From assembly GCF_003790525.1 (NCBI RefSeq), contig NZ_CP033635.1: DNA of 64,000 nt; one strand, given 5' to 3'. The translations under genes were made by a program, and so were the position numbers. The notes under the pieces are model-generated. The model saw only the letters and a program-made list of their open reading frames with translations, made no database searches and was not told where the DNA came from. The first letter of the stretch is position 1, and each line of letters opens with the position of its first letter. Of this stretch, positions 9,771 through 47,775 are shown piece by piece. This DNA comes from Escherichia coli. GTDB taxonomy: Bacteria > Pseudomonadota > Gammaproteobacteria > Enterobacterales > Enterobacteriaceae.

Positions 9771-9844
9771 AGACTTTACCCATTGCTGAATGCACGGGTA
9801 AAGTTAGGCTCAAATAATTAAACAACACGTTACGGGACAACAGG

Positions 9845-10792
9845 ATGCAAAATCGGCTGACCATCAAAGACATCGCGCGCTTAAGCGGCGTGGGGAAATC
9901 TACGGTTTCCCGGGTGCTGAATAACGAAAGCGGCGTGAGCCAGCGCACGCGCGAGCGTGTTGAAGCAGTGATGAATCAGCATGGATTTTCCCCTTCCCGC
10001 TCTGCGCGCGCTATGCGTGGGCAAAGCGATAAAGTGGTCGCCATCATTGTTACCCGTCTGGATTCGTTGTCAGAAAATCTCGCCGTTCAAACCATGCTGC
10101 CAGCGTTCTATGAACAAGGTTACGACCCAATCATGATGGAAAGTCAGTTTTCCCCGCAATTAGTTGCCGAACATTTGGGGGTCCTGAAACGGCGTAATAT
10201 CGACGGCGTAGTGCTGTTCGGTTTTACCGGCATAACAGAAGAAATGTTAGCCCACTGGCAGTCATCGCTGGTTCTGCTGGCGCGTGACGCAAAAGGCTTT
10301 GCTTCAGTCTGTTATGACGACGAAGGGGCAATCAAGATCCTGATGCAACGGCTGTATGACCAGGGGCATCGTAATATCAGTTATCTCGGCGTGCCGCATA
10401 GTGACGTGACGACCGGTAAGCGACGTCACGAAGCCTACCTGGCGTTCTGCAAAGCGCATAAATTGCATCCCGTTGCCGCTCTGCCAGGGCTTGCTATGAA
10501 GCAAGGCTATGAGAACGTAGCAAAAGTGATTACGCCTGAAACTACCGCGTTACTGTGCGCAACCGACACGCTGGCACTTGGCGCAAGTAAATACCTGCAA
10601 GAGCAACGCATCGACACCTTGCAACTGGCGAGCGTCGGTAATACACCGTTAATGAAATTCCTCCATCCGGAGATCGTAACCGTAGATCCCGGTTACGCCG
10701 AAGCTGGACGCCAGGCGGCCTGCCAGTTGATCGCGCAGGTCACCGGGCGCAGCGAACCGCAACAAATCATCATCCCCGCCACCCTGTCCTGA
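9845..10792 (+). CDS. treR: Trehalose operon repressor TreR (LacI family), 315 aa
   Basis: ORF MQNRLTIKDIARLSGVGKSTVSRVLNN... with N-terminal HTH; upstream of treBC. Confidence 0.95.
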   Translation: MQNRLTIKDIARLSGVGKSTVSRVLNNESGVSQRTRERVEAVMNQHGFSPSRSARAMRGQSDKVVAIIVTRLDSLSENLAVQTMLPAFYEQGYDPIMMESQFSPQLVAEHLGVLKRRNIDGVVLFGFTGITEEMLAHWQSSLVLLARDAKGFASVCYDDEGAIKILMQRLYDQGHRNISYLGVPHSDVTTGKRRHEAYLAFCKAHKLHPVAALPGLAMKQGYENVAKVITPETTALLCATDTLALGASKYLQEQRIDTLQLASVGNTPLMKFLHPEIVTVDPGYAEAGRQAACQLIAQVTGRSEPQQIIIPATLS

Positions 10793-17218: not shown

Positions 17219-17509
17219 TCACTCATCCAGCCGTTTTGTCGCGTCTTCATAAACGGCTGAGTTTTCTCTCTTACCAATAGCTATCACCAACACGAGTAAC
17301 TCTTTATCATTGACGGAATAGACCAGGCGATATCCCAGTGTGCGCAGCTTAATTTTGTAGCAGTCCGGTAAATCCCGCAGTTTAGCCGATGGATTGCGCG
17401 GCCTTTTCAGCACATCCTCAAGCTTTTTTTTAAATTGTTCCCGGACTGTCACGCCCAGTTTTTGCCACTCTTTCAGCGCCCGCGGATCAAACGCCAGCTC
17501 ATAGTTCAT
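17219..17509 (-). CDS. RelE/ParE-family type II toxin (about 96 aa)
   Basis: Inside ORF 17219..17587 the ATG at 17507-17509 gives MNYELAFDPRALKEWQKLGVTVREQFKKKLEDVLKRPRNPSAKLRDLPDCYKIKLRTLGYRLVYSVNDKELLVLVIAIGKRENSAVYEDATKRLDE, which I recognise as closely RelE-like; it overlaps the upstream antitoxin by 11 nt. Confidence 0.85.
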   Translation of the reverse strand: MNYELAFDPRALKEWQKLGVTVREQFKKKLEDVLKRPRNPSAKLRDLPDCYKIKLRTLGYRLVYSVNDKELLVLVIAIGKRENSAVYEDATKRLDE

Positions 17510-17741
17510 CCAGTCGGACCTTAATGGCCTCTTGTGGGTTGGCCAGTCGTTCCCTGACAGTGCGTAACAAGGCTTCTTCACTATCACTGACAGTGAGCGT
17601 TTTTACCGGCATTCGTCCATTTTCCGCAACGTACTGAAACAGCAGCCGCACTGCTTCAGTAGGCGTAATATTTAATTTTTCCAGCACCGCATAAGCCTCA
17701 TTTTTCAGTTTGTCATCCAGGCGGACGTTAAGTGTGGCCAT
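17499..17741 (-). CDS. RelB/DinJ-family antitoxin (80 aa)
   Basis: ORF MATLNVRLDDKLKNEAYAVLEKLNITPTEAVRLLFQYVAENGRMPVKTLTVSDSEEALLRTVRERLANPQEAIKVRLDEL resembles RelB; RBS GGAGGC precedes the ATG at 17739-17741. Confidence 0.85.
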   Translation of the reverse strand: MATLNVRLDDKLKNEAYAVLEKLNITPTEAVRLLFQYVAENGRMPVKTLTVSDSEEALLRTVRERLANPQEAIKVRLDEL

Positions 17742-38325: not shown

Positions 38326-38883
38326 ATGACCCTACGCAAGATTCTGGCACTCACCTGCCTGCTGTTGCCGATGATGGCTTCCGCACATCAGTTCGAAACC
38401 GGTCAGCGAGTGCCGCCGATTGGCATCACCGATCGTGGCGAGTTGGTGCTTGATAAAGATCAGTTTAGCTACAAAACCTGGAACAGCGCGCAGTTAGTGG
38501 GAAAAGTGCGAGTACTGCAACATATTGCTGGTCGCACCTCTGCAAAAGAGAAAAACGCGACGCTGATTGAAGCGATTAAATCAGCAAAGTTACCGCACGA
38601 TCGTTACCAGACCACCACCATTGTTAACACCGACGACGCAATTCCGGGTTCCGGCATGTTTGTGCGCAGCAGTCTGGAGAGTAATAAAAAGCTTTATCCC
38701 TGGTCGCAGTTTATTGTTGATAGCAATGGCGTCGCACGCGGTGCCTGGCAGCTGGATGAAAAAAGTTCCGCTGTAGTGGTGCTGGATAAAGACGGTCGCG
38801 TGCAATGGGCCAAAGACGGGGCGCTTACTCAGGAAGAGGTGCAGCAAGTGATGGACCTGCTGCATAAATTAATTAATAAATAG
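38326..38883 (+). CDS. ytfJ: Periplasmic protein YtfJ, 185 aa
   Basis: [37 protein letters not shown]... (signal peptide). Confidence 0.9.
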
Positions 38884-39613
38884 ACACTCTGAACCCCGGA
38901 TTCAGGAACGACTCGCGCGGAGTGTAATCCAGCGGTTTACCCTGCCAGTCGTGAACGTGCGCTCCGGCAGCCGCAGCCACAGCATGACCAGCGGCGGTAT
39001 CCCAAATATTCGTTGGCCCGAAACGCGGGTACAGCTGCGCCTGTCCTTCCGCCACCAGGCAGAATTTCAGCGAAGAGCCGATGGACGTGGTCTGATGTTC
39101 GCCAAGCTGTTGCAGATACTCTTTCAGCTCCGCATCTGCATGGGAACGGCTGATCACCACCAGCGGCGGGCGCGCATCGCGGACCTGAATCTGCTTGCGC
39201 ACACCGCACTCTTCTTTCCAGGCTTTGCCTTCTGCCGCGCTGTACATTACGTTCATTACCGGCGCATACACCACACCTAAAATCGGTTTGCCGTGGTCGA
39301 TGAGCGCAATGTTAACGGTGAATTCGCCATTACGTTTAATAAACTCTTTAGTACCATCCAGCGGGTCTACCAGCCAGTAACGCTGCCAGTGCTGACGGAC
39401 TTCCCAACCGGGAGGATCTTCTTCAGAAAGGACCGGAATATCCGGTGTCAGCGTACGTAAACCGTCCATGATAACGGTGTGTGCGGCAATATCCGCTGCC
39501 GTTACCGGAGAATTGTCCGCTTTGCTGACGACGTCCATCGGTTTCGTCCCGTCGTAGACCTGCATAATGGCATCGCCTGCATTCCGTGCAAGCTGGCATA
39601 CTTGATCTAACAT
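38873..39613 (-). CDS. cysQ: 3'(2'),5'-bisphosphate nucleotidase CysQ, 246 aa
   Basis: [25 protein letters not shown]...; inositol-monophosphatase-family motifs (DPLDGT, WDTAAG). Confidence 0.95.
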
Positions 39614-39802
39614 TTCTCCACCTCGTCTCTGTGAGCGGTGTTAACTTATTGTTTTACTTATACCCTATCGTTAATGAATGCGCCAACTGTGATAGTGTCA
39701 TCATTTTCAAAGCGTAAAATTGTGGCATTCTTCACTGTTCTATAAGTAATACGTTTATTCTCCCTTTTCTTTCGTATTCCCGATGATAAAAGGATGTCCC
39801 TG

Positions 39803-45091: not shown

Positions 45092-46585
45092 TCAGTCATT
45101 CAGTGGAAGTAATTCATTGTTGTAACTGGTGTACTTACCTTCAACGGTAAGCAAACTGCCGTTTTTATCAAGATGCGCCGCATCGAGTTGTCGAGTCTCA
45201 TTACGCCGCTTCGCATCACGTACCAGCCCATCGCCTACGTAATAAATATAGTGGTCATCATGAGCAAAGGTATCTGATAATTGACCATTGGCGTATTTAA
45301 ACCACGTCCATTGGCCTTTCAGTTCAAAATGCTCAACCGTGTCTTCATCAATAAAATACGTATAGCGATCGTCATGTGCTAAATAATTTAATGGTGTGCC
45401 ATCGGGGCTTTTATACCACTGCCATTGCCCATTAATATCAAAAATAGTCACATCATCGCGCGCGATGAAATAAATTTTGTTCCCTACAACATTAGCACCT
45501 TTCTGTAATTCTTGTTGTGGGTCTGGTAAATGTATGACCGACAGCGTTTTTTCGACCGCAGATATATATTTCACCAGATAGAGCGAATCTTTATATTGCG
45601 CCACATTCTCCGTCAGCGGGCGAAAATATTCCGGATCAACATCAGGAATTGTCGCAACCCGGCAGTCATTAGCACGCCTGGAAGCATCACGCGTCATCCA
45701 GGTTACTTTATCCCGCTGTAGGTCAAATATACTTCGGCAGTTTTTACCGAACGCATAACGTTTCTCCCCGTCTTTATCGCGATAAATTAGCAGTGAACCG
45801 GCTATCCAGCGCACAATATGAAAGGTATCCGGATCGGCGTTGATGGCATCTCCATTCACAAAGACCTGCGATTTAGTCCGCCAGATTGTATCCCAGGGTC
45901 CCGGATTACTTTTGCTTTCGCAGCTATTAGGTGAATAAATAATGGGACGACGTGTCCAGGGTTTAATGTCAAGAATAGAATACCCTTGCGCACTACCTAA
46001 CCAGCGCCCCTGAAAGTAAAGATTGCGACGATCTTTCAGCACATCCGCGGAATCAAGTGAATTCATCCTTCCCCCCACCTGTTGCAGCGAATCCATATCG
46101 ACCTGCTTTTCGCCGTGATTATCATCCGTGCGTTCGCCATCAAAATAGAGGCTGTCTTTATCGGCAGCAAAACGCCCCCATGCGCGGAATGTTGCGGCAT
46201 CGACTTTCGGTGTTCCCGGCGGGTTCTGAACTATTTTCCCTGCCCATAAAATATGGCGGCCATCAGTCAACCAGTCGAAACGCCAACCACCGTTGGTTCT
46301 GATATAAGCGCCACCATCCACCCGCACAAAATCATTATTGATATCATCAGGAGAATCATATTCATCATCAGTGCCGTCAGATACACGGCGCAGTTGTTTG
46401 AACCTCACCTGCGGTAAATGAATATCCGGAAAATAGAGTCCGTAACCATCGCTATCTTCAACAATATATTTTGTTCCTTGCCCCCACGGTTGGTAATAAA
46501 AAGAGGCAGATGGTACGCCGGAGCAGGCTATTGAATTGAGTGAAAATAAAGCCAGTGCGAGACAAACGGGTTTAATTGGTAACAT
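45092..46585 (-). CDS. Secreted repeat protein, paralogue A (497 aa), DKNYY-like repeats; function unknown
   Basis: ORF with N-terminal hydrophobic signal-like segment MLPIKPVCLALALFSLNSIAC; repeated motifs (GKIVQNPPGTPKVDAATF, DKDSLYFDGERTDD, VNGDAINADPDTFHIVRW, KIYFIARDD, YTYFIDED, YIYYVGDG); clearly paralogous to the adjacent ORF. Confidence 0.75.
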   Translation of the reverse strand: MLPIKPVCLALALFSLNSIACSGVPSASFYYQPWGQGTKYIVEDSDGYGLYFPDIHLPQVRFKQLRRVSDGTDDEYDSPDDINNDFVRVDGGAYIRTNGGWRFDWLTDGRHILWAGKIVQNPPGTPKVDAATFRAWGRFAADKDSLYFDGERTDDNHGEKQVDMDSLQQVGGRMNSLDSADVLKDRRNLYFQGRWLGSAQGYSILDIKPWTRRPIIYSPNSCESKSNPGPWDTIWRTKSQVFVNGDAINADPDTFHIVRWIAGSLLIYRDKDGEKRYAFGKNCRSIFDLQRDKVTWMTRDASRRANDCRVATIPDVDPEYFRPLTENVAQYKDSLYLVKYISAVEKTLSVIHLPDPQQELQKGANVVGNKIYFIARDDVTIFDINGQWQWYKSPDGTPLNYLAHDDRYTYFIDEDTVEHFELKGQWTWFKYANGQLSDTFAHDDHYIYYVGDGLVRDAKRRNETRQLDAAHLDKNGSLLTVEGKYTSYNNELLPLND

Positions 46586-46617: not shown

Positions 46618-47775
46618 TTATTTAAATAAGGGTTTAAGCCCGCTCGGGGGTTGCTTCACCGATAACCAACCTCCCTTGCCTAAGTTATAACGCAGCCATT
46701 CACCTTGTTGGGCGTGTTCTTTCCCAATTCCAGTCGCTTGTTGAGTGTAAAGCTGCCCGTCTGTTGATATAAACGTGTTAGTTAATCCCCAACTACCCCC
46801 TGCTTCAAGTGAGTCGGAGAGATCCTCTGGCTTGAGATTAACCAACTCACCTTCGCCCAGGGCGTTAATTGTGACTTTATATATTTGGTTCTTATATAAA
46901 CCGGTATTCCGAACAAACAGATAAAAATATTCCGGATCAACTCCCGCCAGCGTTTCATAAATACACTCACTGCCCGCTGGAGTGGCTTCATATTTGAGCC
47001 AGGACACGTTATTCAGACCAATATTAAAAGGTGCACAGCGATAGCTGGTATCCTCCAGCTCATAGTCACGCTCGCCGCTTTTATCGCGATAAACTAAGCG
47101 TTCGCCAGGCATCCAACGTTTAATCTGAAAAGTTTTGCGATCGGCGGGCAGTGGCTTGCCATTAACAATCACCTGCGAATTTGTCTGCACAACAAATTGC
47201 AGGGAGGAATCATGCCGCAGGATTTGAAATCCGTCAGCGCTTCCCAACCAGTGCCCCTTATGCCAAAGACTATTTTTATCACGCAGTAAATTCCAGATGT
47301 CCGTCTCTTCAAGCGTTGACATATCCACCTGCTTATCACCGCTATTATCATCGGTACGCTGACCATCAAAATAGATACTGCGTTTATCAGCAGCGAAAGC
47401 GCCGAATGCCTGAAAACTGGCAGCGTCGACTATAGGTTTACCGGGGGGATTTTTCAGGACTTTGCCAGACCAAAGAACAGAGCGTCCATCGGTGAGCCAG
47501 GCATGTTCGCAATCCCCCTCATCATCGCAATCGAACTTATCGGGATTAAAATCGGACAGTAACCGGGAATCTTGTTTATTGGCTAAATTGGCAATACGCC
47601 AAAGGCGGGAAAAATTAATATCTGGTAATTCGGAGAGGATCTCATCTTTTTCCCCCTTCTGTTCGACAACATAAACCGTGCCTTTCTCCTGCTGGCGGTA
47701 ATAAAAATCCGCGCCCCAGGAAGGTGAAATAGAGGGAGGTAATGCGGCGATTAATAACCAACTGCGCTTAACCAT
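46618..47775 (-). CDS. Secreted repeat protein, paralogue B (about 386 aa), DKNYY-like repeats; function unknown
   Basis: ORF 46618..48003; probable start ATG 47773-47775 gives MVKRSWLLIAALPPSISPSWGADFYY (signal-like); shares a long conserved block with paralogue A (WLTDGR..LW.GK...NPPG.P.VDAA.F.A.G.FAADK.S.YFDG.RTDDN.G.KQVDM). Confidence 0.7.
   Translation of the reverse strand: MVKRSWLLIAALPPSISPSWGADFYYRQQEKGTVYVVEQKGEKDEILSELPDINFSRLWRIANLANKQDSRLLSDFNPDKFDCDDEGDCEHAWLTDGRSVLWSGKVLKNPPGKPIVDAASFQAFGAFAADKRSIYFDGQRTDDNSGDKQVDMSTLEETDIWNLLRDKNSLWHKGHWLGSADGFQILRHDSSLQFVVQTNSQVIVNGKPLPADRKTFQIKRWMPGERLVYRDKSGERDYELEDTSYRCAPFNIGLNNVSWLKYEATPAGSECIYETLAGVDPEYFYLFVRNTGLYKNQIYKVTINALGEGELVNLKPEDLSDSLEAGGSWGLTNTFISTDGQLYTQQATGIGKEHAQQGEWLRYNLGKGGWLSVKQPPSGLKPLFK

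Follow-up and report, generated by a model that had tools for sequence, protein, structure and literature searches.

Convergent ytfJ and cysQ of Escherichia coli share an 11-bp tail-to-tail overlap that is probably ancestral and is split by the ytfI islet in K-12

In the window, by which we mean the whole 64,000-nucleotide stretch of Escherichia coli DNA analysed here, ytfJ, encoding a periplasmic YtfJ_HI0045 family protein, converges with cysQ, encoding a 3'(2'),5'-bisphosphate nucleotidase, so that the final 11 nt of ytfJ lie inside cysQ and the final 11 nt of cysQ lie inside ytfJ (Table 1). Read on the plus strand, the shared segment is (A)TT-AAT-AAA-TAG and closes YtfJ with I-N-K-stop, while on the minus strand it reads (T)CT-ATT-TAT-TAA and closes CysQ with S-I-Y-stop. 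YtfJ matches the Pfam family PF09695 (1.5e-77) and the NCBIfam family TIGR01626 (5.5e-92), with residues 1-183 of 185 aligned to profile positions 1-183 of 184, and CysQ matches the inositol monophosphatase family PF00459 (Pfam, 8.6e-52). The overlap is independent of start-codon choice, because stop codons fix both 3' ends, and the RefSeq annotation of E. coli SMS-3-5, which is 100% identical to the window, contains the identical 11-bp overlap. An earlier note on this DNA had described an 11-bp overlap of the 3' ends of cysQ (minus strand) and ytfJ (plus strand), and the ORF list, the raw sequence and RefSeq all confirm it. ytfJ/cysQ is a convergent overlapping gene pair in that it shares 3' nucleotides, both frames are genuine and the arrangement is conserved in relatives; because this conservation extends across the Enterobacteriaceae, the overlap is not a chance feature of the strain.

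Table 1. Features at the ytfJ/cysQ junction, with positions counted from the first nucleotide of the window.
Feature	Coordinates	Strand	Description	Evidence
ytfJ CDS	38326..38883	+	185 aa, stop TAG 38881-38883	ORF list, PF09695, TIGR01626, RefSeq SMS-3-5
cysQ CDS	38873..39613	-	246 aa, stop TAA read 38875-38873	ORF list, PF00459, RefSeq
Tail-to-tail overlap TTAATAAATAG	38873..38883	both strands	11 bp	raw sequence
Empty site of ytfI islet	38871..38873		ytfJ side ends here, cysQ side starts 38873	K-12 homology
Weak palindrome CTGAATCCGGGGTTCAG	38889..38905	-	within cysQ 3' end, codons L-N-P-G-F-R	consensus scan

The RefSeq annotation holds 12 convergent pairs in the 64-kb window, of which ytfJ/cysQ is the sole overlapping one, the gaps of the others measuring 0, 0, 32, 44, 61, 78, 82, 111, 128, 128 and 205 bp. 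At ~17219-17741 a RelB/RelE toxin-antitoxin pair, which looks like an accessory gene set beside a core gene, is convergent with nrdG at a 0-bp gap, and at ~51099 a TetR-family gene adjoining a TRAP-transporter/CoA-transferase gene cluster meets a LysM-like gene, likewise at a 0-bp gap (both positions converted from RefSeq coordinates). Elsewhere in the window, treR (~9842-10792) is annotated in SMS-3-5 as a pseudogene without its N-terminus, and two hypothetical genes of 497 and 385 aa (45092-46585 and 46618-47775, both on the minus strand) lie between cycA and ytfE. Neither hypothetical protein has a significant Pfam or PADLOC family, a sub-threshold DKNYY match being all that was returned; in K-12, cycA is presumably directly adjacent to ytfE, and the two-gene stretch looks like another small strain-variable islet.

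In K-12 MG1655, 1,212 bp separate the stops of ytfJ and cysQ and contain ytfI (939 bp, 312 aa, on the cysQ strand). The earlier note had suggested, tentatively, a small K-12 gene ytfI near this point for which the window has no room. The gene is indeed present exactly at the junction in K-12, so that the K-12 annotation has an intervening gene and not the identical overlap, but with 312 aa it is not small; its absence from the window is legitimate, the junction being insert-free and without islet remnant. In megablast, the alignments of genomes that carry ytfI are interrupted at query position 574, corresponding to window position 38873, the last base of cysQ. Among 5,420 complete E. coli genomes with a match, 3,800 (~70%) are contiguous across the junction like the window, and the K-12 ytfI insert was found in 1,623 E. 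coli genomes (~30%) at 80-100% identity. The 61-nt junction itself was matched over at least 80% of its length in 3,794 E. coli genomes, in 1,359 of them at 99% identity or more, and among the full-length matches listed identity ranged from 96.7 to 100%, with at most 2 mismatches. By megablast, strains without ytfI include ATCC 25922, an O25b:H4-ST131 isolate, O104:H4, O121 and the BL21-derived Rosetta2(DE3), and carriers include K-12, O157:H7 and O145 as well as, by the source names of protein matches, Shigella flexneri. The window thus represents the empty site of a ytfI polymorphism, colinear with outgroups and with a foreign-looking alternative allele at the same point. This insertion polymorphism is already documented, since Higashi et al. 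(2016, PLoS Genet, PMC4720273, S10 Fig) illustrate with ytfI a K-12-specific segment that H-NS binds and that SE11 and SE15 lack. The locus and the polymorphism are the same as in that figure, to which the window adds another ytfI-free strain; unlike the present analysis, the parts of that paper dealing with this segment address neither the overlap at the unoccupied site nor how widely other genera conserve it, nor the further cargos. The junction itself is an ordinary conserved convergent overlap with nothing new about it.

For the wider family, we surveyed the ytfJ neighbourhoods of 80 species-representative genomes (best 80 of 268 relatives), all Enterobacteriaceae with a YtfJ identity of at least 76%, and located both stops in each, one locus (L027) being read by eye. 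Within these best 80 of 268 relatives, ytfJ and cysQ overlap in 74 species-level genomes and in three registers, namely 11 bp in 40 genomes (Escherichia, Salmonella, Citrobacter, Klebsiella, Raoultella, some Kosakonia, Pseudocitrobacter), 7 bp in 27 genomes (Enterobacter, Lelliottia, Leclercia, Pluralibacter, Silvania, some Kosakonia) and 4 bp in seven genomes (Kluyvera, Yokenella, Trabulsiella). A plain spacer between the two genes was found in none of the same 80, the remaining six all carrying inserted DNA. In junction alignments the window is colinear with the outgroups and retains no remnant of the islet, from which we infer that the overlap is ancestral among the sampled Enterobacteriaceae genera and that ytfI is an insertion. 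The layout would have been inherited from the common ancestor of the sampled genera, with the register shifting among 11, 7 and 4 bp and the spacer never having opened. By this comparison the window is not the odd one out, as the insert-free overlap appears as the ancestral state in the Enterobacteriaceae and is the majority state in E. coli.

Within the overlap, the two proteins behave differently. The 74 loci with an overlap share a conserved CysQ C-terminus that closes in [IL][YF] (L027 read by hand), whereas YtfJ keeps LLHKLL and then varies (NK, SK, KK, GQ, AQ, TQ, DQ, N, KD, NN). In the 11-bp class, the penultimate YtfJ residue tracks the last CysQ codon, TAT going with N, TAC with S and TTT (Phe) with K. 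A conserved CysQ tail together with a YtfJ tail that varies with the CysQ codons points to CysQ as the constrained partner and to the last 2-3 residues of YtfJ as a probable passenger following the CysQ codons. Synonymous diversity of cysQ stays flat up to the overlap, the two final bins (0.38 and 0.43) lying close to the gene-wide value of ~0.42, and for ytfJ, analysed over 180 codons, the final bin (0.34) falls within the range of the internal ones (0.31-0.53). Neither the cysQ nor the ytfJ end showed the added constraint on synonymous sites that would be expected of an RNA element, and the coding ends appear to be free of a hidden conserved RNA element. At window positions 38866-38883 the insert-free E. 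coli allele reads AAATTAATTAATAAATAG and other Escherichia species and Citrobacter have AAGTTGCTCAATAAATAG; from the latter to the former, AAG becomes AAA, followed by three substitutions within five nucleotides. Through these substitutions YtfJ LLNK becomes LINK and the TGA stop of cysQ becomes TAA, and the older AAGTTGCTCAA form is retained by the ytfI-linked ytfJ tail of K-12.

The ytfI islet has a GC content of 0.35 overall and of 0.28-0.385 in 200-nt windows, compared with 0.50-0.60 in its flanks. In K-12 it contains a hairpin between the ends of ytfJ and ytfI (z = -2.4 and -3.2 on the two strands) and a second one directly after the cysQ stop (z = -3.15). The islet would have inserted at the left edge of the overlap, with ytfJ gaining a new 2-codon tail, and would thereby have supplied each of the displaced gene ends with a strong hairpin resembling a terminator. 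Flanking direct repeats were not found around the islets of K-12, the cryptic-clade 'E. coli' (L006), E. albertii (L008) or Kluyvera (L059), and the K-12 islet contains no transposase or integrase, its ORFs of at least 50 aa besides ytfI being two short antisense frames. With neither flanking direct repeats nor an integrase or transposase, the ytfI islet was rejected as a mobile element of the IS, transposon or integrative type. The left islet junction of K-12 matches the 11-bp overlap at 8 of 11 positions, which is indistinguishable from chance in AT-rich sequence. The cryptic-clade strain carries an orthologous islet at 77.6% identity to K-12. Identity between K-12 and the window in ytfJ falls from 98.9% at the 5' end to 93.3% in the last 90 nt, and in cysQ it is 93.3% in the 90-nt bin before the last 91 nt and 97.8% in those last 91 nt. 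Because divergence between K-12 and the window climbs toward the junction, the data fit ytfI being an old presence/absence polymorphism that may have been exchanged by homologous recombination through the flanks. E. coli ETEC1738 (L085, 1371-2664) has an IS1 at the ytfI position and a ytfJ annotated without its C-terminus, while no more than the terminal 164 nt of the ytfI islet are left beside cysQ, an imprecise islet loss.

The protein encoded by the islet is an ORFan restricted to Escherichia/Shigella, for which neither a family nor a confident fold was detected. YtfI has no match in Pfam or NCBIfam, and a weak local PADLOC match to Cas6b (E = 8e-4, 41 residues) was discounted. A word-indexed search of a 5.8-billion-protein collection returned 17 clusters, all named ones from E. 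coli or Shigella. Among 1.84 billion representatives, a profile search matched 19 short proteins of at most 166 aa, the strong ones of which are fragments of YtfI itself, as well as one 1,441-aa protein matched in 13 stretches, which we assume to be a compositional match; no credible remote homolog was found among these 1.84 billion representatives. The AlphaFold2 model has a pLDDT of 52.5, and Foldseek against the PDB gave nothing below E = 0.01, its top matches, PUR-alpha and Whirly, being uninformative (TM 0.1-0.2, rmsd ~20 A). In an ASKA overexpression screen, ytfI is among the HOCl-resistance hits as an uncharacterized gene (PMC8228696).

The ytfI islet is one of several cargos at this point. 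E. albertii NBRC 107761 (L008, 4792-5949) carries a 385-aa pentapeptide-repeat protein (PF00805, 7.6e-12) in a 1.5-kb insert of GC 0.33, and Citrobacter youngae ATCC 29220 (L045, 4559-6678) carries a 2.1-kb islet encoding a membrane protein, whose C-terminal tail is rich in Cys, Gly and Ser, and a radical SAM/SPASM enzyme, which together look like a peptide-maturation pair. Of the islets checked, only this one has a flanking repeat, formed by two direct copies of 42 nt from the ytfJ 3' end (4507-4548 and 6638-6679, 95% identical). In two Kluyvera species (L059, 4556-5455, and L062) a Peptidase_S11 / beta-lactamase-like gene lies at the junction, and K. intermedia (L068, 4556-4626) has a spacer of 71 nt that contains a hairpin, begins similarly to the Kluyvera islet and is probably a deletion scar of it. 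Because the flanking ytfJ and cysQ overlap, an insertion must rebuild a gene end, and in every insertion the native end of cysQ is intact and ytfJ has a new short tail. With unrelated cargos in independent lineages, the junction can be regarded as a small integration hotspot. The concept of horizontal-transfer hotspots between core genes reportedly goes back to Oliveira et al. 2017 (Nat Commun); as in those hotspots, one core-gene junction has received four unrelated cargos here (ytfI, pentapeptide-repeat, radical SAM pair, Peptidase_S11-like), but the ytfJ/cysQ islets are tiny (0.9-2.1 kb, one or two genes) and have no integrase, tRNA or IS ends.

How the two transcripts end at the insert-free junction bears on whether the overlap matters for expression. 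A consensus scan and folding found no intrinsic (bidirectional) terminator with a stable G+C-rich hairpin and a U-tract after the stop at the window junction. Compared with dinucleotide shuffles, the 76-nt fold across the junction has z = +1.49 on the minus strand (cysQ sense) and +0.40 on the plus strand (ytfJ sense), and the terminator consensus scan gave 4 matches in the region against 2.1 +/- 1.5 in shuffles. Bidirectional intrinsic terminators between convergent genes are said to have been described by Ju et al. 2019 (Nat Microbiol); the K-12 islet hairpin CCCCTATC...GATAGGGG between the ends of ytfJ and ytfI is like these elements, whereas the window junction has no such element and no room for one. 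The absence of an intergenic terminator proposed in the earlier note is therefore borne out by the folding scores and by the position of the sole terminator-like hairpin, which lies before the cysQ stop. With shared gene ends and no room for a terminator-like element, complementarity of the two mRNAs over 11 nt or more follows, so that the antisense overlap of transcripts, raised there together with a conjectural transcriptional interference, is guaranteed by gene geometry. Each transcript would extend antisense to the opposite gene for 11 nt or more, probably for tens to hundreds of nt, and the ends would be formed mainly by Rho-dependent termination or by 3' trimming after ribosomes leave at the stop. 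In the RNA downstream of the cysQ stop, C exceeds G by 14-33% across ~180 nt, an excess that would suit Rho loading; the RNA downstream of the ytfJ stop is weakly C-rich in its first ~250 nt and comparably C-rich only beyond, and on this side a Rho site does not appear evident. Rfam has no known RNA at the ytfJ/cysQ junction. In the divergent intergenic region between cysQ and cpdB there is a strong match to the ES239 sRNA (39680-39802, minus strand; 150.5 bits, gathering score 62, E = 2.8e-30), which is on the cysQ strand, upstream of the cysQ start, and extends over the region of the cpdB start codon.

Two readings would question the overlap or its age. If it were an annotation artefact, YtfJ or CysQ would truly end earlier; nothing was found in favour of this beyond the poor conservation of the last 2-3 YtfJ residues, and since each 3' end is simply where the reading frame meets its first stop codon, with no prediction involved, the TIGR01626 alignment reaches YtfJ residue 183 of 185 and the CysQ tail is conserved through its final residue, we assign it practically no probability. 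Alternatively, the window might have lost ytfI by deletion, the 11-bp overlap then being a derived fusion of once-separated gene ends. Such a history would agree with the spacer and ytfI in the reference strain K-12 and with old and diverse ytfI alleles (77.6% identity between K-12 and the cryptic-clade strain, 80-100% within E. coli), but the same 11-bp overlap is shared by other Escherichia species and by Salmonella, Citrobacter, Klebsiella and Raoultella, the window lines up with outgroups across the junction without any islet remnant, the ytfI loss that is observed, in ETEC1738, leaves IS1, a truncated ytfJ and 164 nt of the islet, and the islet is foreign in composition and confined to Escherichia/Shigella. 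We consider a deletion very improbable, and the preferred reading remains an ancestral junction with ytfI as a later insertion.

Two further readings concern function at the junction. The weak palindrome in the cysQ 3' end could be an intrinsic terminator of cysQ embedded in its own coding end, as the consensus scan flagged it (7 pairs, 3 of them G-C, with 5 T in the next 8 nt) and the rare Arg codon AGA of Escherichia completes its stem. However, the stem is confined to Escherichia and is missing in other genera that share the same overlap and write CTC AAC CCC GGC TTC CGG, it is unused in the minimum-energy fold of a region whose fold z is +1.49, the number of matches in the region is within shuffle expectation, and release 7-9 nt past the stem would precede the cysQ stop and leave a non-stop mRNA, which together make an embedded terminator improbable. 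The overlap could also be a selected cis-antisense device in which ytfJ transcription lowers cysQ expression, or the reverse, as in mscL-arfA, for which tail-to-tail antisense regulation has been measured in E. coli (PMC10070815). Retention of the overlap in 74 of the 80 species genomes (best 80 of 268 relatives) through three registers, the convergent-gene precedent itself, the lack of a terminator insulating ytfJ from cysQ, and the sigma-E promoter and sigma-S RNA polymerase binding reported for ytfJ (PMC4447067) all speak for such a device; given these two inputs, ytfJ read-through into cysQ could rise under envelope stress. ytfJ/cysQ resembles mscL-arfA in being convergent Enterobacteriaceae genes with complementary 3' regions and one stress-induced partner, but the measured effect belongs to mscL-arfA (PMC10070815), and ytfJ-cysQ is often split by insertions. 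A literature search on ytfJ/cysQ transcript overlap returned nothing relevant. Against a device stand the inserts of 0.9-2.1 kb tolerated by ~30% of E. coli as well as by E. albertii, C. youngae and Kluyvera species, a tolerance of separation that argues against required coupling, the hairpins resembling terminators that border the islets of K-12, E. albertii and Kluyvera, and the general explanation of such overlap lengths by chance lengthening of 3' ends as far as the following stop (Kingsford et al. 2007, cited in PMC3887535). Overall, we regard a selected antisense device as unlikely. The same holds, at somewhat lower odds, for its more specific form, in which the family-wide terminator-less overlap would be selected because sigma-E-driven ytfJ transcription running antisense into cysQ tunes PAP phosphatase and sulfur assimilation, and the two terminators of the ytfI islet would uncouple the genes.

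The overlap is not required to be a regulatory device and fits a neutral model of extension followed by persistence. Convergent overlap lengths are generally explained by random 3' extension to the next stop, and Fukuda et al. 2003 likewise treat convergent overlapping pairs as formed by 3' extension (cited in PMC3887535). Like the neutral convergent pairs considered there, the ytfJ/cysQ overlap is short, lies in stop-rich AT sequence, joins opposite-strand 3' ends and has a passenger-like YtfJ tail; its family-wide maintenance in three registers goes beyond what neutrality calls for but is compatible with it, and persistence through three registers could also reflect selection for the overlap instead of neutrality. 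Taken together, we hold it highly probable that the window shows the ancestral, insert-free junction, constrained by CysQ and consistent with neutral persistence, that the K-12 ytfI islet is a later insertion, and that, with no terminator present, the transcript ends would arise by Rho-dependent termination or trimming.

In conclusion, the annotation worry at this locus is settled, as the overlap is genuine, ytfI is legitimately absent and the ancestral allele is known, and the matter is of little consequence. Short islets of one or two genes appear to have entered this junction repeatedly, which makes it a possible natural model for the way insertions rebuild overlapping gene ends. Were the coupling selected after all, K-12 would be an unrepresentative model for ~70% of E. 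coli at ytfJ/cysQ. Irrespective of this, K-12 has the minority state, and K-12 3'-end or H-NS data at cysQ/ytfJ are not transferable to most E. coli, including BL21-type strains.
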